Positions 1,042 through 34,328 of a stretch of DNA of 64,000 nucleotides are shown here, one piece after another. Numbering within the stretch: the first letter of the stretch is position 1; each line of letters starts with the position of its first letter. The position numbers and the translations under genes were made by a program. Origin of the DNA: a virus (Duplodnaviria > Caudoviricetes); IMG/VR virus record IMGVR_UViG_3300014205_007777, positions 5,476 to 69,475 of that record. One strand, written 5' to 3'. The notes beneath the pieces are model-generated. The model was given only the letters and a program-made list of their open reading frames with translations, was not told where the DNA came from and ran no database searches.

Positions 1042-1048
1042 GCACAAT

Positions 1049-2470: not shown

Positions 2471-4057
2471 ATGAGCGATCCGTTCTTTAAAACTAATTTA
2501 ACGACACTCTACTACGGCGATGCTCGGCACATGACCGAGCTACCGGATGAGAGTGTACACATGGCCGTAACTTCACCGCCTTACTTCGGTTTAAGAAAAT
2601 ACGCTGATTTACCCAATAGTATTTGGGGTGGGGACTCGGATTGTGAACACCAGTGGGGGAAGGAATTAAAAACTCACAAAGGACACCCCGGTACCAGAAG
2701 TAATCTTGTTAGTATTAAAGTATCGATGCACTCTAAAGAAGCTAATACCAACGGTAATTTCTGCCTCAAATGTGGAGCATGGCGTGGTTCCTTCGGATCA
2801 GAACCCACGGTCTCGATGTATATTGAACACACCATAGAAATACTCAGGGAAATAAGACGCGTACTACGATCCGATGGTACTCTCTGGTGGAACATCGGGG
2901 ACTCTCATGCTTCCGGTAAAGGTACATGTTTTAACCCGGGCGGCGGAGATCCTCGTAATACGTATGCAGGTATACAAAAAAGAAAAGAGGATGGGGTGTA
3001 TCCCCTCGATCGTGGTAGTATTACTTCCTTAAAAGAGGATGGCTTAAAACCCCTTGACCGCTGTTTAATCCCTTTCCGCGTAGCTTTAGCTGCTCAAGCT
3101 GACGGGTGGTACGTGAGGATGGAGAATATTATTAATAAAGATAATCCTATGCCGGAAAGTGTTTTTGGTTGGTTCTGGACAAGACATAAGATAAAAACTA
3201 AAGAATCAGTAAGAGATCCTAAAACACCAAATAATCAAAGTGATGGGCGTCACAACCCTGAATCAAAAAGCCAATACATAGACTGTCTCGGCTGCCCAAA
3301 GTGCTCACCAAACGATGGCTACATATTAAGACGCGGTGCCGGCAGACCCGCCGAGTCCCACGAATACGTTCTAATGCTCACCAAAACCAATAAGTACTAC
3401 TATGACCGGGAAGCTGTTCGTGAGAAACAAACGGGAAACGCTCATTCACGAGGTACCGAGATAGGTAATTCCGAATATTTCGAGGCCCGGGGAAGTTATA
3501 AAGGTTTCAAATCACCGGAGACAGAACTGCCTAACGGTAGAAATTTAAGGAGTGTTTGGACAATGCCCATGCAACCCTTCCCAAAAGAACTTAGAAAATA
3601 TGGAGCACATTACGCTGCCTTCCCGGAGAGATTACCCGAGATCTGCATACAGGCTTCGACAAGTGAATTCGGTTGTTGTGCCAAATGTGGGGCTCCTTGG
3701 GCTAGAATAATAGAGCAAGAAAGCCCTCCCGATGAAGTATTTACGGAAACAATGAATCCGGATGACGGTTTTATCAATGGTCATCGACCATTGGGTGGTA
3801 AATACCGAGGATCAGGACAGAAATTACAGGACTGGATTAATGAGCACCCACCTAAGACTACCGGCTGGCGGCCAACCTGTAATTGCGGTGTTCAAGAAAG
3901 AGTACCGGCCACAATTCTCGATCCTTTCTCGGGATCCGGTACCACGCTGCAGGTAGCTACAAAACTAGGACGCCGGAGTATCGGCTACGAGCTTTCACCT
4001 CGATATCTCAATCTCATTATTAAAAGATGTAAACAATTAGGACTGAGTTTATTATGA
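2471..4057 (+). CDS. Site-specific DNA methyltransferase (N4-C/N6-A, beta class) with large insertions
   Basis: TSPPY catalytic motif near N-terminus, DPFSGSGTT SAM-binding motif near C-terminus, HYAAFP motif. Confidence 0.9.
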   Translation: MSDPFFKTNLTTLYYGDARHMTELPDESVHMAVTSPPYFGLRKYADLPNSIWGGDSDCEHQWGKELKTHKGHPGTRSNLVSIKVSMHSKEANTNGNFCLKCGAWRGSFGSEPTVSMYIEHTIEILREIRRVLRSDGTLWWNIGDSHASGKGTCFNPGGGDPRNTYAGIQKRKEDGVYPLDRGSITSLKEDGLKPLDRCLIPFRVALAAQADGWYVRMENIINKDNPMPESVFGWFWTRHKIKTKESVRDPKTPNNQSDGRHNPESKSQYIDCLGCPKCSPNDGYILRRGAGRPAESHEYVLMLTKTNKYYYDREAVREKQTGNAHSRGTEIGNSEYFEARGSYKGFKSPETELPNGRNLRSVWTMPMQPFPKELRKYGAHYAAFPERLPEICIQASTSEFGCCAKCGAPWARIIEQESPPDEVFTETMNPDDGFINGHRPLGGKYRGSGQKLQDWINEHPPKTTGWRPTCNCGVQERVPATILDPFSGSGTTLQVATKLGRRSIGYELSPRYLNLIIKRCKQLGLSLL

Positions 4058-9646: not shown

Positions 9647-11812
9647 TTATGTCTGAACATACTTTCTTCCGCCTATACCCAAATTGGATACAGATAAGTC
9701 CGGCGGATATACACAGCTAAAGGGTTGACCCTGGAACACAGAACCTAAAGTATCAAGTATGATTCTGCCTCCACCTACTACACTCACGTCATGTACGTAA
9801 GCATTGGAGTCTCCCGCTACATACCAGGCTTCGGCTAATATCTCTACGACTCCATTTTCCGTAGGAGTAAAAGTAATTGTTAATTGCTGCCAGTCGGTAT
9901 TATCGGCTGCAACCGCGGTTACGTCTGAAGTTACTCCTGCTATTTGATAAGCCGGAAGTCTAATCTGACAAGCAATATTAGTAGCATGATCTTTTTTCAT
10001 CCACGCTTTAAAGGTAACGAGTTGGTTAGCAGTACAGGCTACTTTAGAGAGGGAAAGAGGGGCAACATAGTTTGATAAACGAGTTGAGTCTGGTTGGAAT
10101 TCCCACGCTAGACCTGAAGGTGTGTGACGGGTAACGGTTTGAGAGAAAATCAAGCCTGTTGTATTACTTTGTTGCCCTTGAGCATAAATACGTGCGGTAT
10201 TGGCAACACCTCCATATTTATTTACTCGTAAAGTAGAGTTTGAATAATCAACCGAGGGAGTTACTGGATTAGCCTCAGACGCCGAAAAATTGATAATAGT
10301 ATTTACCCCGCCACTATTAAAATACCCGCCCGACACTCCATTCCCATTAGTTGAAAGAGATTTTATCATGTTGTTACTGCTGGTAAAATAAACACCTCCA
10401 TTATTATTATTATTGGCATTAGTTATTGTTGTTACCGTATTGTTGTTACTGTTGTTGAAGTATACGCCGTAGCCATTATTATTATTGGCATTAGTTATTG
10501 TTGTTACCGTATTGTTGTTACTGTTGTTGAAGTATACGCCGTAGCCATTATTATTATTGGCATTAGTTATTGTTGTTACCGTATTGTTGTTACTGAGGTA
10601 GAAAAAAACACCGCTATCACCATTATTATTGGCATTAGTTATTGTTGTTACCGTATTGTTGTTACTGTTGTTGAAAACAATACCGGAGTTATACCTGTAA
10701 ACGGATAAATAATTAAGCGTGCTATATGATATAGAGGATAAGAAAATTCCGTATCCTCTCCCATTCAACCCATCGAAAAACGTTTCACCTATCTGTGTAT
10801 TTAGAGTAGTATCATATCCTCCCTGGTATTGGATATTATTACCAAAAGTACCTGAATCCTGTAATGCTTGAACAGCAGTTGTTAAGCCTGCTGTTAATGC
10901 AGTTTTAATTGTCTCTCTTTTATAAGTTGTAACTGTTTCAGGACTCGTTCCTGTAGTAGAATATCCTCTACCCGCATTAGCCAGAGTATTGTTATCATTA
11001 TCCAGTAAAACAGTCGTTCCATTTATTGACTGTATTCCGTACCACCCTTCCGTTCCACCTTGAGCTAATGAGTTCTTGGAAATCAGACTTTGGAGATTCA
11101 ATCCATCAGTAGTACAGGCGATAAAGTCATCAACTCTTATATATTTCGAAGCTGTTGGCGCTGTTATTCCTGTGTAAATTGCGATAGAGTTGATATTATT
11201 ACCCAGATTGCCACCGCCAGTTCTAGCAATCGTTAAAGGCAACCATCTTGCCGTTGAAGGTATCGCCGGAATAACAAAAGAGTCAACTACTACCGCGCCA
11301 AGTGCATCCGAACATAGACAAACCAACCACGTTGTTGCATCCGCTATTGCCACCTCATTCTTAAACCAGAAGCTTAATTTCTGATATGTGGATAAATCCA
11401 GAGCTCCCGCTAATGGATAATAAGCCTGTAAGATACTCGGCTGAGGAGCGGCATCCATACCTATTTGCATACAGAATGAGCCCTCTTTGGCATCGGTAGC
11501 TACAGGTTGTAGAGTAATAGTGGCATCTCCACCTACAGCGGCTGTCCAGGCTATTTCACATAAATCCACAGTAAGTGTTTGAGCAGCGGCTAAAGTCACA
11601 GTTTTAGATAAATTAGTCCATGTACCGTCTCCGACAGATACAGGGTCAGGACTCTTAGCAATACGGATAATATCTCCCGGAGCAATTCTCGCTGCGGTAG
11701 GACCAGCGGTAATAGTTTTCCAGGGTCCAACTGCCGGTAATCCGCCTAAAGCAAAGGTCGAGCCGTCTGCCGCATCATTTCCATTCTCATAGTCTAAATA
11801 AAATGTAGGCAT
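9647..11812 (-). CDS. Receptor-binding/spike protein with Asn-rich beta-helix repeats and C-terminal carbohydrate-binding-like domain
   Basis: MPTFYLDYENGND N-terminus; four NNSNNNTVTTITNANNN repeats; WQQLTITFTPT CBM-like end. Confidence 0.7.
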   Translation of the reverse strand: MPTFYLDYENGNDAADGSTFALGGLPAVGPWKTITAGPTAARIAPGDIIRIAKSPDPVSVGDGTWTNLSKTVTLAAAQTLTVDLCEIAWTAAVGGDATITLQPVATDAKEGSFCMQIGMDAAPQPSILQAYYPLAGALDLSTYQKLSFWFKNEVAIADATTWLVCLCSDALGAVVVDSFVIPAIPSTARWLPLTIARTGGGNLGNNINSIAIYTGITAPTASKYIRVDDFIACTTDGLNLQSLISKNSLAQGGTEGWYGIQSINGTTVLLDNDNNTLANAGRGYSTTGTSPETVTTYKRETIKTALTAGLTTAVQALQDSGTFGNNIQYQGGYDTTLNTQIGETFFDGLNGRGYGIFLSSISYSTLNYLSVYRYNSGIVFNNSNNNTVTTITNANNNGDSGVFFYLSNNNTVTTITNANNNNGYGVYFNNSNNNTVTTITNANNNNGYGVYFNNSNNNTVTTITNANNNNNGGVYFTSSNNMIKSLSTNGNGVSGGYFNSGGVNTIINFSASEANPVTPSVDYSNSTLRVNKYGGVANTARIYAQGQQSNTTGLIFSQTVTRHTPSGLAWEFQPDSTRLSNYVAPLSLSKVACTANQLVTFKAWMKKDHATNIACQIRLPAYQIAGVTSDVTAVAADNTDWQQLTITFTPTENGVVEILAEAWYVAGDSNAYVHDVSVVGGGRIILDTLGSVFQGQPFSCVYPPDLSVSNLGIGGRKYVQT
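10385..10690. repeat. Four in-frame tandem repeats of 69-72 bp inside the spike gene
   Basis: Unit TTATTATTATTGGCATTAGTTATTGTTGTTACCGTATTGTTGTTACTG... repeated; copies differ mainly in length of the (TTA)n run and in the following few codons. Confidence 0.9.
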
Positions 11813-11832: not shown

Positions 11833-13875
11833 CTATTGTCTTCCTGCGTATTCAATATAATAATTATAAGTCCCGCCCTCGGCTGAATCAAGTAATATTT
11901 TACCTACTACCCAACCATCAATTGCACTAACTGAATCTTGGCAAACTACCCACTTGGTTTGTGCTCCGGTATCACCTGCGAGATAAGAATCGTCAACTGC
12001 TACCGTGTGCATAAGTAGAGCAGTAAAAAACTCACTGCCAAGATTTGTTCCAACAGCGTCATCTGCAATACCTACTTGTAACGTAGTAGTAACTGCGGTG
12101 GAGGCCGTAACGACTTCGATAACAACCTTCTTGATAAATATATCTTGAAGTTCCGGATTGTGCCAGGCAAAGCCTATGGTGTTTACCGCCCCTGCGGTTA
12201 AAGTGCCTGAGGCAGTACGGATTTCACCTGGAGCGATGTAATTGGCATTCCCAATATAAGTAACATTAGTGTAGGCACCGGCAGTATAGTATGGAGTAGC
12301 AGCGCTAATATTATTGTTCATTATTCGGACTGGTGTGGTGGGAGCGGTAGCATTAGTCTCTAAACTTATCCCCCTTGAAGCTCCATTTACAATAATATTA
12401 CCTTCTATCAAAACATCTGTTGTAGCCGTGACAATTCTAAACACGTGAGTTACAGCATCAACAACCAAATTGCCTTTTATAATCACTGAGTCACATGAAA
12501 TAAATTGATTACTACTACTTGCATACTCAGTATTCCCTGAAAAAACAACACCGTTATTATAGGTTAATTTTACAGTTACGACCCCCGATGCTGATTGCGT
12601 GTGAAAGTCATTGTTGCTTATATTGATGTTTTTAATTTCAGTGCCAGTCCCACCAGTAGCCTCCAAAGCATTGTAGGTAGGAATGTTAACAAACGAATTA
12701 GAGGTAATGTTTATATTTTCGATAGAAGCTGCAATCAAGATACGACCATCATTAGCGATGGAATTACCACTGACCACTATGTTTTTTGTTTCATATAGTA
12801 TACCGATTGTAACATCACGTAAATCCAACTTGATGCCGGTAATAAGATTACCCAACACATTTACATTCTGGCAACCATAGAGAATCAGATGTGTATAAAC
12901 TACTGAATCGTTTGGGGTAAAAGTACAACCACTGACAATACTATTATCCGTTACTCTTAACGACATACCCCCAAATATGTGACAGTTAACAACTCTGAGG
13001 TAATCTCCAAAACTGGCTAAAAACGCTGGAGTTGTTGTCGCGATACCACTAGGCATAATAAATGTGCTATCTTTTACTAATACATTCGTAAATTCCGCTC
13101 CAGCAATCCCTTCAATATGAACTCCACCATACTTTGACATATCGTGAAAGTAACAATTAGTTACAATCATATCCTCGCCACGACCACGTAAGGGACGATG
13201 TCTGCTATTGGTGACTTCAACCCTGTCTACAAGAAAACGATTCCCGTTATAAAAATCAATTTCATATTCCGCCCCGCAATCAGTAGAGATGACAGGCCAG
13301 TTAGCAGAGTTACCGTCTATTTTTAAATTACTCAGTGAGCACCCGTCACCTGTAAAATAAAATGTAGACATGATAGAAACACACTGTTTGCCAATCGCAT
13401 ATGTAGCTGTTGCATTCGCTGTTAATGTTAGTTGTGTAGGCGAATCAATAGTATCTATCACGTAAGAATCAGGCGTGTCGCCAATTCCTACAGCTTCCCC
13501 TGCGTAAAATCCAGTCGTGCTGGTAACGGTTACTATTTTTGTACCAATCGTGAGCTGAGCCGTTAATGCGGTAACCGTCTGGTCTTTAACCGTAATTACA
13601 GTACTCCAACCCGCACCATGTATATTAATGTTATCCTGAGTAATATTTCCATCATTAGCGGCAACAAAGTTTCCCTCTGACAGGTAGAAATCGTGATAGC
13701 CTGAAGCTAAACCAACATTAATAGAATCAATAACATTAGTTCCGCCATCAACTATATCCGCTTGTGCCTTACATATTTCAGGTGCATCTGAGGCTGCTAT
13801 GACATAGGTAGCAGCACGACCAGTGGGATCATACGGTCGTTGTCCTACAGTTCTGTGTGCACATCCTACACTCAA
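11833..13875 (-). CDS. Right-handed beta-helix (pectate-lyase-like) spike protein
   Basis: YLSEGNF...ITQDNINIHGAG start of beta-helix; repeated I-S/T-G-N-x-I/F rungs; beta-sandwich C-terminus. Confidence 0.75.
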   Translation of the reverse strand: MSVGCAHRTVGQRPYDPTGRAATYVIAASDAPEICKAQADIVDGGTNVIDSINVGLASGYHDFYLSEGNFVAANDGNITQDNINIHGAGWSTVITVKDQTVTALTAQLTIGTKIVTVTSTTGFYAGEAVGIGDTPDSYVIDTIDSPTQLTLTANATATYAIGKQCVSIMSTFYFTGDGCSLSNLKIDGNSANWPVISTDCGAEYEIDFYNGNRFLVDRVEVTNSRHRPLRGRGEDMIVTNCYFHDMSKYGGVHIEGIAGAEFTNVLVKDSTFIMPSGIATTTPAFLASFGDYLRVVNCHIFGGMSLRVTDNSIVSGCTFTPNDSVVYTHLILYGCQNVNVLGNLITGIKLDLRDVTIGILYETKNIVVSGNSIANDGRILIAASIENINITSNSFVNIPTYNALEATGGTGTEIKNINISNNDFHTQSASGVVTVKLTYNNGVVFSGNTEYASSSNQFISCDSVIIKGNLVVDAVTHVFRIVTATTDVLIEGNIIVNGASRGISLETNATAPTTPVRIMNNNISAATPYYTAGAYTNVTYIGNANYIAPGEIRTASGTLTAGAVNTIGFAWHNPELQDIFIKKVVIEVVTASTAVTTTLQVGIADDAVGTNLGSEFFTALLMHTVAVDDSYLAGDTGAQTKWVVCQDSVSAIDGWVVGKILLDSAEGGTYNYYIEYAGRQ

Positions 13876-17453: not shown

Positions 17454-18218
17454 TTAGGCAGTTAATTCCTGGCAGCGGGCACACACGAAGCTGAGAAGCT
17501 GGAATTTCGTACTGCCGGTAATACCGGGCATAACAGCGATAGCCTGGCTCTGTAGAGGACCTACGATGACCGGTTTCTCAAAACGGATTACCTGGATATC
17601 ATTATTTGCCGTACCCAGATAGGTTTTTACATTCTGGCAGGCACTCTGGGCCGGAGTTGCTACCCCGCCGAGAGTAAAGGTAACATCGGTGATCTTCGGT
17701 ACTTCGATCGGGTCAATAGCACCGATATGAATAACGGAGGCGAACTGCTCCATTGTCTGGCTTGGGACAAGATTCGCGGAACTATTAGCGGTAACTGTCG
17801 ATAACCAGGTAAAGACGCCGCCGGAAGTACCGCCGTACAGACCGAGAGAACCGGTTGCCGCCGGATTCAAAATGGCACCACCGACATCCTTCGGTCTTAA
17901 CCATTTGAGATCCAACATGGTACCTGCACCCAGGATACCGGCAAACTGTCCTTTGGCCTGTTCCTTAGCCATACGTACAGCAATAAAAATAGACTGAACA
18001 TTCTCGGCAACCAGGGTGGCGATAAGCGGATTATTCGTCTGGTTGACCAGAGCATCAATCTTAAGTAACAAAGTGTCTGATTCCTTCGCGGAAAATGCGG
18101 CCAGTGCTATCGGAGACATGGTTTGACCGGGGTTGATGACTGCCTCAGTACAGGGATAACTCCCATCTATAGGCCAGTCTCTTACAAGTCCTTTATTTGT
18201 CTGATAAACTATACCCAT
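17454..18218 (-). CDS. Candidate major capsid protein (jelly-roll type, not HK97)
   Basis: 254 aa; helical N-half, beta-strand-patterned C-half; strong SD; early in structural operon; fold not verified. Confidence 0.5.
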   Translation of the reverse strand: MGIVYQTNKGLVRDWPIDGSYPCTEAVINPGQTMSPIALAAFSAKESDTLLLKIDALVNQTNNPLIATLVAENVQSIFIAVRMAKEQAKGQFAGILGAGTMLDLKWLRPKDVGGAILNPAATGSLGLYGGTSGGVFTWLSTVTANSSANLVPSQTMEQFASVIHIGAIDPIEVPKITDVTFTLGGVATPAQSACQNVKTYLGTANNDIQVIRFEKPVIVGPLQSQAIAVMPGITGSTKFQLLSFVCARCQELTA

Positions 18219-19089: not shown

Positions 19090-19761
19090 TCAAATAGGTA
19101 GAAGCATCGGCGGGGGAGGGATTACCTGAAATAGCCACGCCAGTTGCGGGCGTGGAACTATTCTCGCTTCAGGATCTCCATACAAAACAAAATTATCCCG
19201 GTTGAACAATACCAAGTCCCGGATCAATTCGTCATCCACTCCCGCGGCATAATCGTTATAGCTTTGTTTCTGAATATCTCTCACCTCGCTCACGGTCTTA
19301 CCGTCCAGAAGAGCGTTCAGACCGGCGACAACCGGCATCATACAGGGTTTTGCCAGTTTATCTTCCCAGGGCACAGGAGTGCGCATCTCATCCAATATCC
19401 ACAAATAATCGTCGGTCCAACCCAAGAACGCCGCCGCCCCATGATCGATCAGATCGGGACCGAGATAATCTCCCGACTGGCAGGTAAACGAGTAGATAAC
19501 CTTATCTTTCACCTCGTCGTCGCTATACTCTCCTACTTTGAGCAGTACAGTATCATTCTGACCGGTAACCATATCGGAATCGCCATGACCTACGACTATA
19601 ATGACATCGGAATTGCGTGCGGTTAAAGAAAAGGGCAGACGCCGGGCAAGCGGACCATAAAGTTGAAAAGGTTCAAGACGCGGGGCAATATACTTTAAAA
19701 TAAACCCGCTGGCGCTGCGCGTGGAGTGATCGAAGTCGGCCATGGATAGTGTCGCGGTCAT
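19090..19761 (-). CDS. Clan CD (caspase/gingipain-like) cysteine peptidase-fold protein
   Basis: VIIVVGHG (His-Gly) ... VIYSFTCQSG (Cys) ... GAAAFLGW pattern. Confidence 0.6.
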   Translation of the reverse strand: MTATLSMADFDHSTRSASGFILKYIAPRLEPFQLYGPLARRLPFSLTARNSDVIIVVGHGDSDMVTGQNDTVLLKVGEYSDDEVKDKVIYSFTCQSGDYLGPDLIDHGAAAFLGWTDDYLWILDEMRTPVPWEDKLAKPCMMPVVAGLNALLDGKTVSEVRDIQKQSYNDYAAGVDDELIRDLVLFNRDNFVLYGDPEARIVPRPQLAWLFQVIPPPPMLLPI

Positions 19762-23756: not shown

Positions 23757-24347
23757 CTATTTTAGCACACCTCCTTGTTTAGTCAATAGCAGACTGACAC
23801 CGGGCATCACTATCCGCTGGTTTTCCCTGACTACATAACGATAGCGCCTGGCGAAATCAAATAACTCCTTCGTTATTTTCACATCGTGCAGACAATAATC
23901 CACCAGTTCGGCATACCTTCCTTCCTGGTAGAGAACAGGAGCAAGAGAACCATTACCGCTTTTGTGCATACCGATGGTATCAAAAACCACATCGTTTAAT
24001 TTATAGCCGCTGTGAGTATTATAGCTATATTCTTCTGGATTAAGACCAAGCGATATCCATATTTCCCTCAGTATGTCGTAATCTTTCGAGGTACGGACCG
24101 GGTTATCATACGTGGCGTTGATCACCTTCCAGTCAAAACTAACTGTGTTATAACCCGCGATAACATCATAGTTACACAGTATATCCAAACCCTCTTTAAT
24201 ATTCTTATCATCAAATACTCGATAACGGTGTGTAACGTAATCATAGATGACAAGCACGCTCACTCCCATTTCACCATAACTCGACCAACCGAGCGTACAC
24301 TCCGAGATAGGTTTTTTAATTTCCAGGTCGAATACTGCAACACGCAT
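23757..24347 (-). CDS. DnaQ/RNase H-like 3'-5' exonuclease domain protein
   Basis: VFDLEI (ExoI), GYNTVSFD (ExoII), YCLHDV (ExoIII). Confidence 0.8.
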   Translation of the reverse strand: MRVAVFDLEIKKPISECTLGWSSYGEMGVSVLVIYDYVTHRYRVFDDKNIKEGLDILCNYDVIAGYNTVSFDWKVINATYDNPVRTSKDYDILREIWISLGLNPEEYSYNTHSGYKLNDVVFDTIGMHKSGNGSLAPVLYQEGRYAELVDYCLHDVKITKELFDFARRYRYVVRENQRIVMPGVSLLLTKQGGVLK

Positions 24348-24351
24348 ATGA

Positions 24352-25272
24352 TCACCCCTTTTTTAACTGGCTATTTATTGTCCACCGGATAAAGTCATAG
24401 GTAAGTTCATCCCCGTTGATATTAGAGGAAAAATTATCTCCCTTGAGATAGGGCGTAAACGCACTTACCATACGGGCTAACTGGCTCTCTATAGGAGTCG
24501 GTTTGAAGTTGGGTTCTATTTTAAAATCTACTAATATGGTTCTACTGATCCACTCGGCGAGCTGCCCCAGGGTGGGCGGATGAGGATTGGTCAGCCAGTA
24601 TGTACCCGGGTCCGTAAACTCCGCCATCTTCTCGGCAACCTTATCGATGCGCACCATATTCAGGTAACCGTTGGGATTCCCTTTAGCGCGGAACACCGGT
24701 CGTATCACCGGCAGCCGAAGACCGCCTTCAACCGCGCGTCTAATCCTTTCGGCCCTCCTGTGCACTCTTACGATCATAGAGACAAACTGTGGAAAGTGAC
24801 CGCCGCAGGGGTAATCCGGGGTACCGAGCACAATAGAGGGTTTGAAGATAGTCTTCAGCGGTATATCGGACTCACGTACCAGCATCTCCGCAAGAGCCTT
24901 ACTTCTCTCATAAGAGTTACGACCCAGGGTATATGCGGTCGAACAAAACAAGATATGGGGTATATCATGCCTGGTACAGAATTTTAGAACGTTCTCGGTA
25001 CCCCAAACGTTAGTACGGTACGTCATACCATCTTTGTCGGTACCGAGATTCACTATACCGGCCAGGTGGAAAATCTGATCAAAATGAGGTAATGAGTCCG
25101 CCTCTATTCCCAACCCTTCTTTCAAAACGTCACCCTTGACGGCTATAACCCTCATTCTTTTTTCTTGAGGCGGAATACGGTAAAGCGCATATACGAGATT
25201 ACCCTGGGACGCCAGATTATCTACCAGGGCCTGACCGATAAAACCTGAAGCTCCTGTGACTAATATATTCAC
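24352..25272 (-). CDS. Extended SDR oxidoreductase (fatty-acyl/thioester reductase-like)
   Basis: NILVTGASGFIG Rossmann motif, IFHLAG, NVWGT, CSTAY, YERSK (YxxxK), KPSIV. Confidence 0.85.
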   Translation of the reverse strand: MNILVTGASGFIGQALVDNLASQGNLVYALYRIPPQEKRMRVIAVKGDVLKEGLGIEADSLPHFDQIFHLAGIVNLGTDKDGMTYRTNVWGTENVLKFCTRHDIPHILFCSTAYTLGRNSYERSKALAEMLVRESDIPLKTIFKPSIVLGTPDYPCGGHFPQFVSMIVRVHRRAERIRRAVEGGLRLPVIRPVFRAKGNPNGYLNMVRIDKVAEKMAEFTDPGTYWLTNPHPPTLGQLAEWISRTILVDFKIEPNFKPTPIESQLARMVSAFTPYLKGDNFSSNINGDELTYDFIRWTINSQLKKG

Positions 25273-25416
25273 CTCTTATTATCCTTTACTACCAGTATTG
25301 TTTTACATTGAAAACACTGCCAGTAGTCTTTTTTACCGGTGATATGTACCACTCTCTTACTTTTACAGACAGGACAAATAATCATATTTTACTCTCAATT
25401 TATAGTGTGGCATTTT

Positions 25417-25791
25417 TTATTGTAAAGTAACTTTATGCTTAACTATACGGGATAAAGTCCATCTAGAAACCCGCCACCGGCGTGCCGTGGTTGGAACACC
25501 GTACCGACTTATTTCAAGCAGTATACGAGATCTGTTACTTTCATAGTAATCTCGCATCAATGCCCAGTTTCCTTTAGGCGGTAACGGTACCCTCGTTTTC
25601 TCGAATTCCGCTACAGCCTGTTCATTAAGCTGCTCTACCCTGTGGACCAAACGCACAATAGATATTCCCTTCCTCAACTCACCATAATAGTCTATAAAAT
25701 ACTTAATCAACCCGCATTCACACCTTCCCCATGCGATACACTCTTCACCTTCTGCGGGAAACATCTCAGGAAACCGGTGAGCGTGAGACAA
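25417..25791 (-). CDS. Hypothetical protein with C-terminal HTH
   Basis: GVPTTARRWRVSRWTLSRI HTH-like end; N-terminal His/Cys motif. Confidence 0.5.
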   Translation of the reverse strand: MSHAHRFPEMFPAEGEECIAWGRCECGLIKYFIDYYGELRKGISIVRLVHRVEQLNEQAVAEFEKTRVPLPPKGNWALMRDYYESNRSRILLEISRYGVPTTARRWRVSRWTLSRIVKHKVTLQ

Positions 25792-25800
25792 TATGTCCTC

Positions 25801-26802
25801 CTAACCGAATATCTGACCTATAACTATTAGAATCTCATATACTGCACCGACTATAACCATGAGAGCCGCCCACTTCTTAAAATTAGATTTAAGTAAAAGC
25901 AAGCAGGCTAATAACGGGGGAAAGACTATAAAACAAATACCGGTGAGGGGTTTTAGGACTCCGATATTGATGAGCAACCCCTGATAAAAGAACATGAAAA
26001 GGAACCATGCGGTAAGATACCACTGGAGGGTTGAGAGGGATTTTACACTTACTATCGTTTCACCCATATCAGTTACAGTACTAATATCCCCATCTTCCAC
26101 TGTTTTCGTCTGTCGTTCGCGGTGCACTATCCAATCCGAGTGTTTCCATACCTCATATGCCATACTCTTTACGCCTTTTTTGAGATTAGCGGAGGCGTCG
26201 TCCCACTCGTCTAACGCTAATCCCGCAAAACTCAAAACTATCATAAAAGGAACACTGGCTAGTAAGATGTTCATCCAGTTCGGCGAAGGATTGACTGCCA
26301 GAGCACCGATTATTGCCGGTATCGGACCGCAGGCTATACCTAGCGCAAGTTCGTGTGTATAACTAAATTTAGCTATAAAACTATACCAGAAAGTCATCGA
26401 CATACCGACCACAGCCACAGGTAAAATCAACCATGAAACATTTATTGCTAAATATATTACAGGGATAAACGCCAGTATGATATAAACCACACCCAATATC
26501 CATGTCTCACGCAAACTTAACATCTTTTTAGCTATCAGATTGGAACCACCAGTATATGTTTTTTCCGCGCTTCTTTCCTCTACTTCGCCACTATCCAATC
26601 CGGTCATCCAATCCCCCGCTCCATTCAAGATATGCCCTGATGCCATTATTAGTAACGTAGCTACGGCAGCAACCCAAGTATTAACGTGTATTCCACCGGA
26701 TATTACAGAACCCAAAAACATCGCGGCTAAAAAGTACGGAGCCGCAAACCACCTTGGGGCCTGGATAACGTAGGTCTTAAACTTTTGAATGTTCATTATC
26801 AT
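25801..26802 (-). CDS. UbiA-family (MenA-like) membrane prenyltransferase
   Basis: Multiple TM helices; LNGAGDWMTGLD and LDEWDDASAN acidic motifs; KKGVKSMA after second motif. Confidence 0.85.
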   Translation of the reverse strand: MIMNIQKFKTYVIQAPRWFAAPYFLAAMFLGSVISGGIHVNTWVAAVATLLIMASGHILNGAGDWMTGLDSGEVEERSAEKTYTGGSNLIAKKMLSLRETWILGVVYIILAFIPVIYLAINVSWLILPVAVVGMSMTFWYSFIAKFSYTHELALGIACGPIPAIIGALAVNPSPNWMNILLASVPFMIVLSFAGLALDEWDDASANLKKGVKSMAYEVWKHSDWIVHRERQTKTVEDGDISTVTDMGETIVSVKSLSTLQWYLTAWFLFMFFYQGLLINIGVLKPLTGICFIVFPPLLACLLLLKSNFKKWAALMVIVGAVYEILIVIGQIFG

Positions 26803-27721
26803 ACTCCTTAATAAGTGTATTTACTTTGTTTACGATTTCTTTTTCAGATAATTCTTTCAACTCATGTTCCCAAATAACTAACATTCCATAGCCATACCTT
26901 GAGTATACTTCACGTCTTTCTGACTCTTTTCTATAAGGTTGCGTCGCTTTGGGACCGTGCCAGTAATCACCAAAAAATTCAATTATTAGTTTCTTGCCAT
27001 TACAATTGATGAAATCGGGTACTAAATTTTCTATTACCAATTTGCCACTACCGACATATTTCCACTGATCTGGGAAATATTTATCCAAGATAGAGCAAAG
27101 CTGTGTTTCTTTTTTATTTGGTCTTTTCATACCACGCCTTTGAGCCATTACCATTTCTGTCTTCATTCTTTTCCACTGTTCCTTCGCTATCCGACTCTGG
27201 TACTCCCTCCCCTCTGCTGTTCTCATACGTTCATGACCTTTTTGAAGGAACTTTTCAAGAATTTCTGGATGCTTTATTCGCGTTGTTTTAGCACCCTTCG
27301 CTGAAGATATTCTATGTTCAGGTGATTGGTTTAACTCTTTAAGGTGATTAAGTAACTTATTTCTAAATTCTGGCTCTTGCCATTTCTTTTTAAGGGAACC
27401 GCGTTGCTTAGTTATAAGACCTCGTTTTATATTAACTTCGGGAGTGTGAGCTTCTGGTATGTCGCCCCTTTTTATTGCAGCAACGCTCATCTTTTTTATA
27501 GTATCGGCAGTAAAGCACCCTTTCTTGCCTTTATTCCAAGCCTTAGTACCTTTACGACCCAACGACGTACACCGACGACTGTGGTATTTTATCTCACCTC
27601 TCTTTATTAAGGCGCTCTTATATTCCCAAAAATCAACACCACAATACTGGCACTTCAACCATACAATCTCAGCCCCTCGCCCACCTACCTCTCTTATTCT
27701 ATCCCTTACTCTCATCTCCAA
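26777..27721 (-). CDS. Free-standing homing-type endonuclease (NUMOD3-like motifs plus Vsr/DUF559-like nuclease)
   Basis: AWNKGK motif; C-terminal PDF...IIEFFGDYWHG...VIWEHE. Confidence 0.75.
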   Translation of the reverse strand: MEMRVRDRIREVGGRGAEIVWLKCQYCGVDFWEYKSALIKRGEIKYHSRRCTSLGRKGTKAWNKGKKGCFTADTIKKMSVAAIKRGDIPEAHTPEVNIKRGLITKQRGSLKKKWQEPEFRNKLLNHLKELNQSPEHRISSAKGAKTTRIKHPEILEKFLQKGHERMRTAEGREYQSRIAKEQWKRMKTEMVMAQRRGMKRPNKKETQLCSILDKYFPDQWKYVGSGKLVIENLVPDFINCNGKKLIIEFFGDYWHGPKATQPYRKESERREVYSRYGYGMLVIWEHELKELSEKEIVNKVNTLIKEYDNEHSKV

Positions 27722-27879
27722 CCTTACTCTTAGCTACTTTTAAAATTATACTCAGTACTTCAGCTACTGTAGTATTTGACTTTTGAGCCATACTCAGCAG
27801 AACCAGATATTCTTTTACATTTACTCTGATTATTCTTGTGTTCAATTCTGAAGGATATTTTCTCTTAGTCATGTATACA

Positions 27880-29028
27880 TTATACTACACTTGTTACAAG
27901 GCTGTCAATAGTATTAGGAAAAATCTCCTCCTTATTTTCACTATAGATTACCGCTGGTTTTGGCTTCATACCAAAACGGCACAAAGTCATCCCCCCCGAC
28001 ATTCCGGGACCAATTGACAACATCGCCACATAATCTCCCGGTTGAATATTCTCACTCATTAATAGTTTCCCTTGAATCCCAACACTTGTCGAACTTGTAT
28101 TACCATAAAGCCGTAGTGTCTCCCGCGAAAGAGCAAGTTTCTCCTCTGGCAAACTTAAAGCCTTACCTATATTATCTATCACCGAACCTCCTGCAGCATG
28201 TATAACCCACCAGGTTATATCCCATATATCCAGCCCATTGCGTTTTAACACAGCCCATACCGCGGGTTTGACCACCTGTGCCGCCAGTTCCGGCACACGG
28301 CGTGATAGTATCACTCTCAACCTTCCGTTACGCCACTCAAACCCCAGGTCATCAAGATACTCCGTATTGGTATTATTCTCGGTATCTATTATTTCCGGAT
28401 GCCGCCAATCATCATCGTCTCCGATAAGAGCTGCAATAGCAGCATCGGCAAAAAGTGCATTACTGCGTAAAACTTCAAATCCGTTCTCGGGATCTGGACG
28501 GCAAGTAACATCATCGGGGTTTTCTCTCTCCGGCCAATACGCCAAACTACTTAATTCACAGTTCACCGCTAAAGCCTGCCCGCCATTGGCCTTTACATAA
28601 TCATAAGCTGTTTTCAGACCAGGGAAAGCAGCTTCACAACCCATTCCGGAGTTATTAATTATATAGGTGTCCGGCGAAAATCCTAACCGCGCAGACAAAA
28701 AATGGGGAATAGTCGGACCGGGAGCGAATCCGGTACAGCTCCCGTATATCATACGTTTAATTGCTTTTATATCCCTTCCGTCCAGGCAATTTTTTATAGC
28801 TTCTACAGACAGATCCACAGCCTTTCCTCTATAGAGGTCTTGCTGTTCCTGGAAAGACATTTTCACCGCGTCCGATAATTTTATTACGAAATGACGCTTA
28901 TCTATCCCGCTGTCACGGAAAATACGCCACCAAACCTTAGGATAACCCAATATATTAAATGCCTCTTCTTGGGTATACCAATACTCCGGTACCGCGTAAC
29001 CAATAGAAATAAGTTTAACCCTGCTCAA
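27880..29028 (-). CDS. Type III polyketide synthase (chalcone synthase superfamily)
   Basis: Complete Cys-His-Asn triad: GMGCEAA, WVIHAAG, YGNTSS; also NCELSS, LFADAA, IGPG motifs. Confidence 0.92.
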   Translation of the reverse strand: MSRVKLISIGYAVPEYWYTQEEAFNILGYPKVWWRIFRDSGIDKRHFVIKLSDAVKMSFQEQQDLYRGKAVDLSVEAIKNCLDGRDIKAIKRMIYGSCTGFAPGPTIPHFLSARLGFSPDTYIINNSGMGCEAAFPGLKTAYDYVKANGGQALAVNCELSSLAYWPERENPDDVTCRPDPENGFEVLRSNALFADAAIAALIGDDDDWRHPEIIDTENNTNTEYLDDLGFEWRNGRLRVILSRRVPELAAQVVKPAVWAVLKRNGLDIWDITWWVIHAAGGSVIDNIGKALSLPEEKLALSRETLRLYGNTSSTSVGIQGKLLMSENIQPGDYVAMLSIGPGMSGGMTLCRFGMKPKPAVIYSENKEEIFPNTIDSLVTSVV

Positions 29029-29260
29029 TTTTACCCTCCTTTACCAGATAATCAATAACATCCTGGACTGTAATAAATTTCTCCGCGACCTCATCCGTAA
29101 CAATTACCATATACCTCGTCTCGAGAACCATCGCCATCTCTACCAGGTCAAGTGAGTCCGCACCGAGGTCATCTTTAAATTTAGACTCCGGTTTAATATT
29201 CTCTTCCGGCACATCCAGGTTTTTCGCGATAAAACCTATCAAATCACTGATTTTGTCCAT
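29015..29260 (-). CDS. acpP: Acyl carrier protein
   Basis: DDLGADSLDLVEM phosphopantetheine motif; overlaps PKS start. Confidence 0.95.
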   Translation of the reverse strand: MDKISDLIGFIAKNLDVPEENIKPESKFKDDLGADSLDLVEMAMVLETRYMVIVTDEVAEKFITVQDVIDYLVKEGKIEQG

Positions 29261-29423
29261 AACCCTCTCCTGTATATCTTTTTATTTTTTCTGCATTCTT
29301 ATAGAACCGGGCATGTTCCTCACACACCGGGTAAGTTAAATTTCCCTCTTTCACCATGAATTTACCGGGCTTACCACAGGGTCGGTTGCGGCTGCTCTCA
29401 GACGGGTGTTTACATTTCAACAT

Positions 29424-29612
29424 CTAATCACCTACAGTACGCCTAAAGTCCGCGTCTAAACTTTTCATCTCTTTTCCCAACTGAACAGGCATAAAACAAG
29501 ACTCATGAACCCAGACTATCTTACCCTCGATTTTTGTTTTTGCTATCTCGTTACCCACGAAGATCATTTCTTTACACTTCGGGCATTTCCTAAAATATTT
29601 AGCTGTAGGCAT
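29424..29612 (-). CDS. Small zinc-binding hypothetical protein
   Basis: CPKC...WVHESC. Confidence 0.55.
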   Translation of the reverse strand: MPTAKYFRKCPKCKEMIFVGNEIAKTKIEGKIVWVHESCFMPVQLGKEMKSLDADFRRTVGD

Positions 29613-29631
29613 TATTTACCCCCACAAACAT

Positions 29632-30015
29632 CTATTCGTCGTCTCCGAAATCACTGTGATTAATATCATCACGGTGCTGGCAGTAGTAGCACTTGCACTC
29701 CCGGTACTGCGGTCGGTGTTCCAACTTAAAACTCTCGATTAGACGGTCATAAGCCTTAACCTGTTTCTCCAATACGGCATTTTGCTTCGGTCCATTGTAT
29801 CCCAAACTCGCGATAACCCCGCCACGCAGTTCAAATACCCGCCGGAACTTGGTTATCTCCTCTTCCAGCTCGAGACAGAAGACCGCAGCGTTCTTTAGCT
29901 CCGTGCCCCGATCACTACCCAGAGGTACCTCCGCACTCACCACGAACTTCTCATGTTCATAATTGCTCAAGTTAAACAGACGCTCATAGGTAATCCTTTC
30001 GTTTTCCATACTCAC
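29632..30015 (-). CDS. Hypothetical phage protein
   Basis: YERLFNLSNYEHEKF motif; C-terminal CKCYYC. Confidence 0.55.
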   Translation of the reverse strand: MSMENERITYERLFNLSNYEHEKFVVSAEVPLGSDRGTELKNAAVFCLELEEEITKFRRVFELRGGVIASLGYNGPKQNAVLEKQVKAYDRLIESFKLEHRPQYRECKCYYCQHRDDINHSDFGDDE

Positions 30016-30021
30016 ACTCCT

Positions 30022-30687
30022 TTAAAATTTTAAATACAATAACGCCATGGCAATAAACGAAAACAGGGGAATAGTTAAATTATCATCAATCATAAACCAA
30101 CCCCTTTTTATAGCCGGTGTATATCTCTCGGCAATAACCGCAATAACAGCTCCCACCGCACTTATCCAATAAGGTTTGAAAAAATATGCCAGTAATAAAC
30201 AGGCAAAAAACATACCAAGACTCCCCCACCAGCCCTTCATCTCACGTTTATAGAGTCGATTTCGGATCAAACCTGTGATCGAATCGCCACCAGCCATAAA
30301 TAAAAGCGGTACGATAGCCAGCCATGGTTGATGTAAATATCCCCATCCCACGGCGATTATAGGGATACTAATCGCCGGAAAGTGTATTTCTGCCAGTGCC
30401 TGGGGACGTCCAGAACCGCCCGTACCCCGGAAAGTGGCAGGGCGCTTCCATCTAGCATAAAGTAGTAAAGCAGTAAATCCAGAGGTTAATATTAAGGGCC
30501 ACCAGAATGACGAGAAGACGAAGGGTATTAACATATATCCCACACAACCACCTAAGTGCCCAAACTTACGGCTAACATGATGAGCGATCATACCGGTATC
30601 GTATATTAAATTCGCCAGGTATAGTCCAATCATTACCGCTCCGGTGATAAGCAATACGTAGGGTATTTCATTTAACATGGTAGTCAC
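30022..30687 (-). CDS. CTP-dependent polyprenol/phytol/dolichol kinase family membrane protein
   Basis: SRKFGH, GGDSITGLI, KGWWGS, AE...IDDNLTIPL motifs; about 7 TM helices. Confidence 0.8.
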   Translation of the reverse strand: MTTMLNEIPYVLLITGAVMIGLYLANLIYDTGMIAHHVSRKFGHLGGCVGYMLIPFVFSSFWWPLILTSGFTALLLYARWKRPATFRGTGGSGRPQALAEIHFPAISIPIIAVGWGYLHQPWLAIVPLLFMAGGDSITGLIRNRLYKREMKGWWGSLGMFFACLLLAYFFKPYWISAVGAVIAVIAERYTPAIKRGWFMIDDNLTIPLFSFIAMALLYLKF

Positions 30688-30693
30688 CTGCTT

Positions 30694-31146
30694 CTAAAGA
30701 TTTAAGTTCTTGGCTATCTGATGGAGAAGATCTTCGCAAAGCTGTAATAGTTCCTCACTATCATACTCATCCAGATCCCGGTACGGATCGGTAATAATAA
30801 GCCATTTCTCGGCATAAGCCTTTCGAAAAATACCGGGCATCCTCAAACCATCCATAAACAAATCCACGCCGGTATAGCTGTCATTAGCCATACCCAGGAA
30901 TATAACCTCATTACGGTATTGATCCGGTTTTTCATTGAGTATTTCAAGTTTCCCGCTATGCACCCGGAAATACAGAATAGTATGGTCCGGTCCCGGTCCA
31001 TCACCGTTGCCGGGATCGTCGACCACTAATTTACAAACACGCCCTTCACCGGCCTGTCTCTTTTCTGCCGGTACCTTAGCTACGAACTTATCCTGGAAAG
31101 GCAAAGCCGCTTTCAATATCCGTGTAATATTCGTTTCTTTAGACAC
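30694..31146 (-). CDS. Hypothetical protein, possibly SCP2 lipid-binding-like
   Basis: LYFRVHSGKLEIL...NEVIF pattern loosely resembles SCP2; not verified. Confidence 0.35.
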   Translation of the reverse strand: MSKETNITRILKAALPFQDKFVAKVPAEKRQAGEGRVCKLVVDDPGNGDGPGPDHTILYFRVHSGKLEILNEKPDQYRNEVIFLGMANDSYTGVDLFMDGLRMPGIFRKAYAEKWLIITDPYRDLDEYDSEELLQLCEDLLHQIAKNLNL

Positions 31147-32009
31147 TAACTTCTCCTTGCTATCCTAGAGGTTAAATCCAGTATTTTTTCCTCCGCCCAC
31201 CGTTTCATCCTGGATGACCGCGATACCACATCCTGACTGATCACCTTACCGTGTTTGGACATGATTTTACCGGCCAGGTCGTAAAAGTATGGCTGTAATT
31301 TCGCCATATTATCCACCTGGGGAAGGGATGCAAGAAAAGGTATACCCTGTTCTCCGGCGATTTTTCTCAAATCCATACCCTTCGAAGTAAAGGGATAAAA
31401 AGTAGCACCGCAACGCGGGCATAAACATGACGCCATATTCTCAACAATACCCAAGACAGGTCTTTCTGTGGTACGGAGAAAATCTATTGTTTTCAGTAAA
31501 CCGACACAGGCTATCTCCGATGGTTGGGAAACTAGCACTACACCATAAAGGTCGGGTATGCAGTCAAAAAAAGTAAATGTCTCCTCAGACGTGCTCGGGG
31601 GCAAATCGAGCACAAGCCATTCCGTATCCTGCCAATCCACAACTTTGGTCAGTATATCTGCAATAAACCCGGTCCGGCCCTTATCAATAACTTTATCTCC
31701 GTTACTTAGAGTTCTGATTTTGTCTTCGCTTTGCCAGCCGACACAGGCAGACTCGGTAAACTTCGAAGCCAAAGGAAATATACGTATACCATCAATTATC
31801 GGTGGAATAAGTTTCTCCCTCTCCGTATCCAACTGCAATCGCGGCGGTTCTATACCAAATGCACGGTGTCCGCTTGTCCCTGATATATCTATTTCAAGAT
31901 ACCCGACACGGTTTTTAAAACCATGATCTCTAATTCCCTGGCACAACCCCGCCGAAACCGTTGACTTGCCCACCCCTCCCTTAACTGCAAAAACCGCTAC
32001 TTTTTTCAT
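31146..32009 (-). CDS. Mrp/NBP35-like P-loop ATPase
   Basis: KGGVGKST deviant Walker A, LDLPP, GIVENMASCLCPRCG. Confidence 0.85.
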   Translation of the reverse strand: MKKVAVFAVKGGVGKSTVSAGLCQGIRDHGFKNRVGYLEIDISGTSGHRAFGIEPPRLQLDTEREKLIPPIIDGIRIFPLASKFTESACVGWQSEDKIRTLSNGDKVIDKGRTGFIADILTKVVDWQDTEWLVLDLPPSTSEETFTFFDCIPDLYGVVLVSQPSEIACVGLLKTIDFLRTTERPVLGIVENMASCLCPRCGATFYPFTSKGMDLRKIAGEQGIPFLASLPQVDNMAKLQPYFYDLAGKIMSKHGKVISQDVVSRSSRMKRWAEEKILDLTSRIARRS

Positions 32010-32019
32010 CTATTCTCAC

Positions 32020-32080
32020 TTTACATAATCATTTGACATAACTGGTTGACATAATAATGAAAACTAAAAACTTTACATAA
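32020..32080. repeat. Four 9-bp direct repeats TT(T/G)ACATAA upstream of the lipid operon
   Basis: Copies start at 32020, 32033, 32046, 32072 (13/13/26-bp spacing). Confidence 0.7.
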
Positions 32081-32269
32081 TATTGTTGGGACTATATATA
32101 ATATATAATACTAATACTATATATCTTAATAATACCTCTTTCTTAAGAGTGCAGAGATTTTCTTTAAAAAACCTGTTACCCTCTACCCTAAATTATTTTT
32201 ATGTATTATAACCTTAACAGACAGTTAATAGCAATACCTTTACGTCAGTAAACTAATTTATTTTATCTA

Positions 32270-32298
32270 TTGCATTGAATAGTAAACCGTGTTATACT
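32270..32298 (+). promoter_or_regulatory. sigma70-type promoter
   Basis: TTGCAT-17 bp-TATACT upstream of SD GGAGGT and ATG 32323. Confidence 0.6.
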
Positions 32299-34253: not shown

Positions 34254-34328
34254 TGCGAGTTGGAGCAGTGGCAGCTCATCAGGCTCATAATCTGAAGGTC
34301 GTTGGTTCGAATCCAACACTCGCTACCA
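34254..34328 (+). tRNA. tRNA-Met(CAT), initiator-like
   Basis: Cloverleaf: acceptor T-GCGAGT/ACTCGC-T, D-stem GAGC/GCTC, anticodon loop CTCATAA, T-arm GTTGG-TTCGAAT-CCAAC, encoded CCA. Confidence 0.92.

Follow-up and report, generated by a model that had tools for sequence, protein, structure and literature searches.

What would a virus-like element of bacteria make with a type III polyketide synthase (PKS) and a membrane prenyltransferase of the UbiA superfamily, and for what purpose? The question is raised by a cluster of genes at positions 24352-32009 of a stretch of 64,000 nucleotides (nt), here called the window, which comprises bases 5476-69475 of a single 69,475-bp contig listed as a virus record (IMGVR_UViG_3300014205_007777). 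An initial annotation had read the cluster as a lipid pathway encoded by the virus. The answer we lean towards, with somewhat better than even confidence, is that the cluster is one late-type operon, and that it is a conserved module of virus-like elements of about 40-90 kb associated with sediment and subsurface Dehalococcoidia, making a membrane-bound prenylated polyketide lipid. Judged from the genes, the product is most likely a prenylated polyketide lipid of a phenolic or quinol-like kind.

The genes of the cluster

All genes within 24352-32009 lie on the minus strand and are packed tightly or overlap. In the order of transcription they encode an ATPase, proteins of 150 and 221 amino acids (aa), three small proteins of 127, 62 and 59 aa, an acyl carrier protein (ACP), the PKS, a 314-aa protein, the UbiA protein, a 124-aa protein and a short-chain dehydrogenase/reductase (SDR). 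The main genes are the following.

31146-32009, minus strand: Mrp/NBP35/ApbC-type P-loop ATPase, 287 aa (PF10609, Mrp/NUBPL, 4e-39)
30694-31146, minus strand: SCP2-fold lipid-carrier-like protein, 150 aa (predicted fold only; start overlaps the ATPase stop by 1 nt)
30022-30687, minus strand: polytopic membrane protein of dolichol/phytol-kinase and cytidylyltransferase fold, 221 aa (feature and fold matches)
29015-29260, minus strand: ACP, 81 aa, with the DSL serine in a DSLD motif (PF00550, 1.2e-10)
27880-29028, minus strand: type III PKS, 382 aa (Chal_sti_synt_C 1.5e-11, Chal_sti_synt_N 4.5e-8)
25801-26802, minus strand: UbiA-superfamily membrane prenyltransferase, 333 aa (PF01040, 36.9 bits against a cut-off of 34.2)
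24352-25272, minus strand: extended SDR of the NAD_binding_4 type (acyl/thioester-reductase-like), 306 aa (NAD_binding_4 3e-22, Epimerase 3e-16)

The gene map bears out the single minus-strand run of seven genes named in the initial annotation, and for five of them (the Mrp-like ATPase, ACP, type III PKS, UbiA and SDR) family scans support the identity directly. In one place the order was different from the one given: UbiA is present, but the gene directly after the PKS is an endonuclease-like open reading frame (ORF), the 314-aa gene at 26777-27721.

By its sequence the condensing enzyme is a type III member of the chalcone-synthase superfamily. Its C-terminal (44.9 bits) and N-terminal (33.2 bits) domains both score above the Pfam gathering cut-off of 27, and the 60 matches listed for the family profile against the PDB are all type III PKSs, with Pks11 (5e-35), THNS (1.5e-33) and CylI (1.4e-32) at the top. 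Cys131, His277 and Asn310 align with the catalytic positions of these three enzymes and are invariant in 30 family sequences, which confirms the full Cys-His-Asn triad claimed earlier. The best NCBIfam match is the equivalog of DpgA (3,5-dihydroxyphenylacetyl-CoA synthase; 1e-34), with 119.7 bits below the cut-off of 425; FabH models match at 1e-16 or worse and in the C-terminal half only. Head-to-head olefin synthesis of the OleA/OleD type, which was considered on account of an OleD-like match of the SDR, was rejected, since the condensing enzyme plainly belongs to the chalcone-synthase type. The ACP scores above two curated cut-offs (NF002148, 79.1 bits against 71, 1.6e-22; TIGR00517, 74.7 against 70.45), and its gene overlaps the start of the PKS gene by 14 nt.

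The prenyltransferase has about 8-9 hydrophobic segments, and N60, D64, D70, D198 and D202, which cover both Asp-rich motifs, are invariant in 11 sequences; the spacing of the first motif, NxxxDxxxxxD, is unusual. In NCBIfam it comes nearest to the models MenA, UbiA and MqnP but falls far short of the equivalog cut-off of each (MenA, the best, 30.2 bits against 277), and its family profile found no match among the PDB sequences. The SDR scores 79.4 bits with NAD_binding_4 against a cut-off of 20.1, and its TGxxGxxG motif (T6, G7, G10) together with S111, Y121 and K125 is invariant in 11 sequences. Among NCBIfam models it matches a thioester-reductase domain (7e-17), OleD (1e-13) and HpnA (4e-14), in each case below the cut-off, and epimerase models likewise.

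The ATPase has a deviant Walker A motif (KGGVGKS), a CxxC motif (CLCPRC) and a basic C-terminal tail. Its best solved relatives are the iron-sulfur (Fe-S) carrier proteins 2ph1 and 3kb1, and CFD1; the match to the MrpORP equivalog (3e-36, 125.5 bits) is below the cut-off of 450. The tail is kept in all members of the family; the CxxC is kept in the window and its two closest relatives and is missing in five other members.

The two proteins encoded next had been called kinase-family and possibly SCP2-like. The predicted folds or features agree with both calls, with template-modelling (TM) scores of 0.84 and 0.71, but neither protein matches a sequence family. For the SCP2-like protein the Atlas model reaches TM 0.71 with a cluster named 'putative SCP2 domain', in which 11% of the members carry SCP2, and TM 0.57 with a cluster whose members all carry PF02036. 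There was no Pfam or NCBIfam match, the profile found nothing meaningful among the PDB sequences, and relatives hold a gene of 146-155 aa at the same position. A predicted complex of the ATPase and the SCP2-like protein scored 0.09, which counts neither for nor against an interaction.

For the 221-aa protein a language-model feature search gave 0.97 and 0.95 to clusters named 'phosphatidate cytidylyltransferase' and 'dolichol kinase'. An AlphaFold (AF2) model built from ten family members has a pLDDT (predicted local distance difference test) of 85.6 and matches a 'putative dolichol kinase' cluster at TM 0.84, archaeal dolichol kinases at 0.69-0.72 and a PAP2-fused form at 0.71. The matches of this model to solved structures are at noise level (CdsA 4q2e, probability 0.66, TM 0.38; CarS 5guf, Z 7.2). 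No match was found in Pfam (PF01148 or related), NCBIfam or PHROG, nor a useful one between the family profile and the PDB. The conserved residues are R40, K41, H44, D135, K151, E187, D202 and N203. A profile search gave 573 relatives; among 39 distant ones scanned, one matches CTP_transf_1 (2.5e-6) and one is fused to DUF92/TIGR00297, presumably the family of the phytyl-phosphate kinase VTE6. VTE6 has been linked to COG1836 (PMC9782597). We read the 221-aa protein as a probable member of the polyprenol-kinase/cytidylyltransferase fold. Archaeal ether-lipid synthesis of the CarS or digeranylgeranylglyceryl phosphate (DGGGP) synthase kind was rejected: the CarS match is at noise level, and no geranylgeranylglyceryl phosphate (GGGP) synthase or glycerol-1-phosphate (G1P) dehydrogenase turned up in scans of part of the ORFs.

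Conservation and origin of the cluster

The cluster was compared with 16 related loci (L001-L016) taken from different samples in ENA, JGI, NCBI metagenome-assembled genomes (MAGs), Logan and IMG/VR. Six core genes, those for the ATPase, the SCP2-like protein, the kinase-like protein, UbiA, the PKS and the SDR, form a linked, syntenic set in at least 14 metagenome contigs that are independent of one another and mostly binned with Dehalococcoidia, and the module is present around every PKS relative whose surroundings were fetched (L001-L016). At least 120 PKS relatives at 56-75% identity were found in sediment, subsurface and other metagenomes. Behind the module the same downstream block is kept, with a protein of 810-1062 aa, a conserved one of 221-226 aa, two of about 100 aa, one of about 250 aa and others; the module is co-oriented with this block of presumed particle genes.

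Within the module UbiA precedes the PKS in most clades and follows it in the window's subclade. The two genes are adjacent in every locus, with at most one tailoring or selfish gene between them. Variation is found in the accessory genes, which are radical SAM enzymes, the ACP and a homing-endonuclease-like gene: the ACP is present in the window and L016 only among the loci compared, and some of the loci have a B12 radical-SAM methylase that resembles HpnR (2e-51 to 2e-70, scores under the cut-off). The pattern shows a lineage-level module and not sporadic cargo. Because the six core genes are syntenic in so many independent contigs, an assembly chimera and a recent pick-up from a host are ruled out.

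Where do the genes come from? Eight copies, each on a short contig, were found in species-representative genomes: five in MAGs of the Dehalococcoidia lineage, two in MAGs of other Chloroflexota and one in a MAG of Aenigmatarchaeota. When 401 sampled genomes of the class Dehalococcoidia were searched with the PKS, the only close match was the element copy that one of them (G001) itself holds, at 61%; the next best was 31%. A further genome (G249) gave no more than a weak, FabH-like match. Plasmid PKSs, including plasmid-borne ones of actinomycetes, are below 30% identity. The ACP matches a known phage ACP family, phrog_5934 (6e-13), whereas nothing in PHROG corresponds to the PKS, to UbiA or to the kinase-like protein. 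Among 50,697 GenBank phage records there was no full-length relative of the PKS (two partial, FabH-like matches) and no match to UbiA. In IMG/VR, where the initial annotation had proposed to look for the cluster, a single-sequence scan gave 0 matches and an alignment-based scan gave one relative with the module. No description of a virus-borne type III PKS and UbiA cluster was found in the literature searched, the coverage of which is incomplete.

Judged by these identities, the cluster is distinct from both host and phage genes. The earlier statement that such a cluster is not known from described prokaryotic viruses stands for the phage records and families searched. Two grounds on which the earlier reading of the cluster might have fallen, an assembly chimera and genes that are unlinked and host-like, failed in view of the synteny and of the PKS being 61% identical to an element copy against 31% to the next cellular match.

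The next-best cellular PKS (G075, L021:8251-9556), at 31% by the genome search and 30% by blastp, has a stand-alone ACP directly upstream. No other genes of the cluster were found near it.

A proposed pathway

The sequences show the gene identities, the intact catalytic residues, the linkage and synteny, and the distinctness described above; each chemical step below, and the purpose, we infer. The type III PKS would take an acyl starter. Delivery in the window's subclade probably falls to the ACP of the element itself, which is translationally coupled to the PKS; in loci without an ACP, host acyl-CoA or acyl-ACP may be the source. The PKS would extend the starter with malonyl units and cyclise the chain to a resorcinol- or pyrone-type head, to which UbiA would attach an isoprenoid chain in the membrane. 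The extended SDR may use NAD(P)H to reduce a thioester or a keto group. The dolichol-kinase-like protein could use CTP (cytidine triphosphate) to phosphorylate either a hydroxyl group of the product or a polyprenol, in which case the prenyl donor or carrier would be supplied or recycled. The SCP2-fold protein would hold hydrophobic intermediates in the manner of the lipid-holding UbiJ and UbiT in ubiquinone synthesis, and the Mrp-type ATPase with its basic tail may be a membrane-associated accessory. In some sister clades the HpnR-like B12 radical-SAM methylase would add an oxygen-independent C-methylation.

Comparison with known systems

By analogy, the nearest described logic is that of actinomycete clusters for alkylresorcinols and alkylhydroquinones, in which a type III PKS stands beside a UbiA prenyltransferase (PMC7587189). 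The agq cluster of Actinoplanes missouriensis makes alkyl-O-dihydrogeranyl-methoxyhydroquinones (Awakawa et al., 2011, ref. 20 in PMC7587189), and the losA neighbourhood of Micromonospora endolithica is similar to it (PMC7587189). The likeness lies in the type III PKS next to UbiA and in the formation of a phenolic polyketide lipid followed by prenylation. The actinomycete clusters are chromosomal and belong to aerobic bacteria, whereas the cluster in the window is on a virus-like element. They are without the SCP2-fold protein, the kinase-like membrane protein, the Mrp-type ATPase, the SDR and the ACP, all of which are found in the window. They use a monooxygenase and an O-methyltransferase; the window cluster has neither, and holds only the PKS and UbiA of the agq-type set.

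Pks11 of Mycobacterium is the best solved relative of the window PKS. Together with Pks18 of the same genus, ArsABCD of Azotobacter and SrsABC of Streptomyces, it represents systems in which type III PKSs turn long acyl starters into membrane alkylresorcinols and alkylpyrones, with the Ars starters coming from a carrier protein. All of these have low identity to the window PKS, whose score comes nowhere near an equivalog cut-off. The carrier in the window is a stand-alone ACP of 81 aa, whereas the Ars carrier is a domain of a type I synthase, and the Ars, Srs and Pks systems are without a prenyltransferase, in contrast to the window cluster with its UbiA.

The isoprenoid quinone and tocopherol pathways share three kinds of parts with the window cluster, the last two of them by predicted fold, namely a ring acceptor prenylated by UbiA, MenA or VTE2, an SCP2 holder (UbiJ/UbiT) and the CTP-dependent prenol kinase family of VTE5 (PMC6747719; PMC9782597); the SCP2 proteins UbiJ and UbiT act in ubiquinone biosynthesis (PMC6747719). 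The ring comes from chorismate or homogentisate in these pathways and would come from the PKS in the window cluster. Their hydroxylases, decarboxylase and S-adenosylmethionine-dependent O- and C-methylases are not in the window cluster, and the matches are at the superfamily level only. Lipid metabolism on a virus genome has a precedent in the algal giant viruses, which carry sphingolipid genes.

Weighing the proposal

A number of points weigh against our proposal. The product is deduced from genes, no lipid having been observed, and sequence alone does not reveal what a type III PKS makes. The UbiA superfamily includes enzymes acting on non-aromatic substrates. Family scans of 24352-32009 found no oxygenase or O-methyltransferase of the agq/srs type. 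The kinase-like and SCP2-like calls are without sequence-family support, and their matches to solved structures are at noise level. One polyprenol kinase yields a monophosphate, whereas classical UbiA enzymes use diphosphates, and the tie of the kinase to prenyl transfer is therefore unclear. Five members from beyond the window's subclade lack the Fe-S-bridging CxxC of the ATPase, which makes it doubtful that the entire family acts as Fe-S carriers. Finally, two loci (L026 and L027) that hold homologues, at 45-48% identity, of a 254-aa jelly-roll protein encoded downstream of the cluster are without the module within 10 kb, and the module is accordingly core to a lineage and not to all related elements.

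As to the purpose, we favour a lipid needed late in infection, in the membrane of the infected cell or in the particle. In our ranking a quinol-like electron carrier comes next, and two separate activities come third. A more specific version, which we consider improbable, is that these are tailless lipid-containing viruses of the wall-less Dehalococcoidia, which would not merely draw phospholipid from the host but build a non-phospholipid component of the membrane themselves, a prenylated lipid of the alkylresorcinol or pyrone type, destined for the particle or for the site of assembly or exit. The internal virion membrane suggested in the initial annotation gets no help from the structural block, where a simple hydropathy scan shows few small membrane proteins; the argument from internal membrane proteins is therefore not used as support.

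Is the element a virus?

One rival reading holds the element to be no virus: it would belong to Dehalococcoidia as an integrated island or as a mobile element, plasmid-like or of another kind. The presumed virion genes would then code for surface or secreted proteins and the cluster would be secondary-metabolite cargo. We regard this as rather unlikely, and it is not exclusive of the chemical readings. The features that bear on it are these.

within 427-2203, plus strand: short tyrosine integrase (PF00589, 9e-25)
within 427-2203, plus strand: IS-type transposase adjoining the integrase (phrog_506, 3e-110)
2471-4057: large DNA methyltransferase, after the integrase/transposase pair
9647-11812 and 11833-13875, minus strand: two large right-handed beta-helix proteins (NosD-like 0.002 and Beta_helix 2e-11)
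17454-18218, minus strand: 254-aa protein with a helical arm and a single jelly-roll (predicted fold, pLDDT 83)
19090-19761, minus strand: 223-aa protein, the most conserved gene of the downstream block (50-70% identity across clades; no family match)
63878-64000 and L025:1-165: iteron-like 33-bp repeat array (about 3.7 copies at each end, with two diverged copies at the start)

The same array holds both contig ends, so that the genome closes on itself, which implies a circular or terminally redundant complete genome. It adjoins a DnaC/IstB-like loader (L025:488-1354). This loader, the iteron-like array, the integrase, the transposase and an ATPase of the ParA/Mrp type are what a plasmid or an island could carry, and they weigh against the virus part of our proposal. 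The initial annotation had the cluster leading straight into virion genes. It is indeed linked to and co-oriented with the downstream block, but neither there nor elsewhere did the scans, which covered part of the ORFs, bring up a terminase, a portal or a major capsid protein that could be recognised as such. Ten proteins of the structural block gave no match to PHROG families and matched few Pfam families, PHROG scans of most replication-side proteins gave almost no matches, and most related contigs are held in MAG bins.

Other observations speak for a virus. The element is listed as a virus record and has one relative in IMG/VR, a free-standing homing endonuclease-like gene is present, and no conjugation genes turned up in the scans run, which took in part of the ORFs. 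The two right-handed beta-helix proteins are typical of phage fibres, spikes or depolymerases. Homologues of the 254-aa jelly-roll protein occur in the otherwise unrelated, glycosyltransferase-rich elements L026 and L027, which also carry radical-SAM enzymes and in one case LytB/IspH; being common to elements otherwise unrelated, the protein behaves like a capsid gene. Among solved structures the SPV1 capsid protein comes out best (Z 6.8, noise level), and many beta-sandwiches match the model equally well, so a capsid role for it is not established. The 223-aa protein has an 'HG ... C' pattern that recalls clan CD peptidases of the caspase/gingipain type and could, from this pattern, be a maturation protease. 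Taken together, the database label, the IMG/VR relative, the fibre-like proteins, the homing endonuclease-like gene and the jelly-roll protein with its noise-level capsid matches support virus status weakly.

Alternative products

With the same chemistry, the product could instead be a quinol- or quinone-like electron carrier, a 'polyketide quinone', by which the element as a metabolic booster keeps or redirects the membrane energetics of its anaerobic host. We hold this to be unlikely. A ring-forming enzyme, a UbiA/MenA-like enzyme and an SCP2-fold carrier do mirror the logic of ubiquinone, menaquinone and tocopherol synthesis (PMC6747719), and the kinase-like family includes phytol kinase, which feeds tocopherol synthesis (PMC9782597). 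The oxygen-independent methylase of the sister clades would suit the tailoring of a head group under anaerobic conditions. The nearest NCBIfam models of the prenyltransferase, MenA, UbiA and MqnP, point the same way, but all their scores are far under the equivalog cut-offs. Against a carrier stands also that the cluster is without a hydroxylase or O-methyltransferase to turn a resorcinol into a redox-active quinol, and that the module has a fixed position, co-oriented with presumed particle genes, whereas typical auxiliary metabolic genes are scattered.

Less probable again is that two unrelated activities share one operon and no prenylated polyketide is made. UbiA and the kinase-like protein would then act on a polyprenyl-phosphate carrier, in envelope glycan or lipid-carrier metabolism as does decaprenyl-phosphate phosphoribosyltransferase, and the PKS, ACP and SDR would make a separate product of the alkylpyrone, alkylresorcinol or fatty-alcohol type. 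Such a division would accommodate the ties of the kinase-like fold family to polyprenyl-phosphate metabolism, with its fusions to DUF92/TIGR00297 and to PAP2 phosphatases, a monophosphate product ill-suited to a classical aromatic prenyltransferase, the odd spacing of the first Asp-rich motif of UbiA and the many glycosyltransferases of the more distant elements that share the jelly-roll protein. The cluster itself has no glycosyltransferase or phosphoribosyl-related gene, however, and UbiA and the PKS, whichever of them comes first, are neighbours in all the loci, which favours their working in one pathway.

That host biosynthetic genes were misjoined to viral DNA in an assembly chimera, or are the inactive remnants of decaying cargo, is scarcely credible, with the linkage to the same flanking genes recurring in at least 14 independent contigs from different studies, catalytic residues invariant across the family, a base composition of 24352-32009 like that of the remainder of the genome, and a contig that closes on itself in a repeat array.

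Other features of the operon and its surroundings

The remaining features of the operon, and two outside it, are listed here.

34254-34328, plus strand: tRNA-Met (CAT), between replication-side genes; the only tRNA gene found in the window (ARAGORN)
32010-32274: AT-rich divergent intergenic region at the head of the operon, the only such region there
32234-32205, minus strand: promoter-like site TTGCTA-18-TATAAT (10/12 consensus matches; consensus match only)
29632-30015, minus strand: 127-aa protein with a Cys-rich C-terminus (no family match)
29424-29612, minus strand: 62-aa zinc-ribbon-like protein (phrog_1581, function unknown, 4.9e-7; weak Zn_ribbon_ACC 0.006)
29244-29423, minus strand: 59-aa Cys/His-containing protein (59-60% identity to ORFs in the two closest relatives, L001 and L016)
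27879-27908, minus strand: sigma-70-type promoter match TTGACA-18-TATAAT (12/12; consensus match only), inside the end of the PKS gene and facing the endonuclease-like gene
26777-27721, minus strand: free-standing homing-endonuclease-like gene, 314 aa, between the PKS and UbiA
25417-25791, minus strand: 124-aa protein (56% identity to L016:12308-12691; no Pfam, NCBIfam or PHROG match)
23757-24347, minus strand: 196-aa protein directly after the SDR (weak RNase_H-superfamily, exonuclease-like match, 5e-4)

The 314-aa protein has weak matches to the homing endonuclease family phrog_3339 (2.9e-4, residues 24-299) and, at its C-terminus, to DUF559 (0.002). Its gene is found in none of the 16 related loci, and in L016 UbiA comes directly after the PKS; we take it to be a selfish homing-endonuclease-like insertion. 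The small proteins differ in how widely they are shared: the 127-aa protein has no homologue in L001-L016 and is thus confined to this genome among the loci compared, the 124-aa protein is common to the window and L016 only, and the counterparts of the 59-aa protein in L001 and L016 sit directly upstream of the ACP or the PKS. The 196-aa protein has no counterpart in the related loci compared and therefore probably stands outside the lipid module.

What the cluster may mean

To our knowledge, the membrane-containing prokaryotic viruses are described as drawing their lipids from the host, and the metabolic genes of phages are mostly for single steps. In the present case a whole lineage of uncultured elements has retained six enzymes and carriers as a linked set; these elements are associated with Dehalococcoidia, which are abundant in the subsurface and in marine sediments. 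The genes also constitute an untapped enzyme set, likely oxygen-independent. It includes an HpnR-like methylase, a divergent UbiA and a clade of PKSs whose identity to the cellular PKSs found here does not exceed 31%. The product itself might be of use as a biomarker lipid in sediments. A quinone-like carrier would be a new viral route to rewire anaerobic energy metabolism. If the product is a lipid of the particle or the infection site, it would change the view of what a prokaryotic virus can build, and should the lipid be the virus's own for virion or assembly, this would be the first de novo lipid pathway as a hallmark module of a prokaryotic virus lineage.

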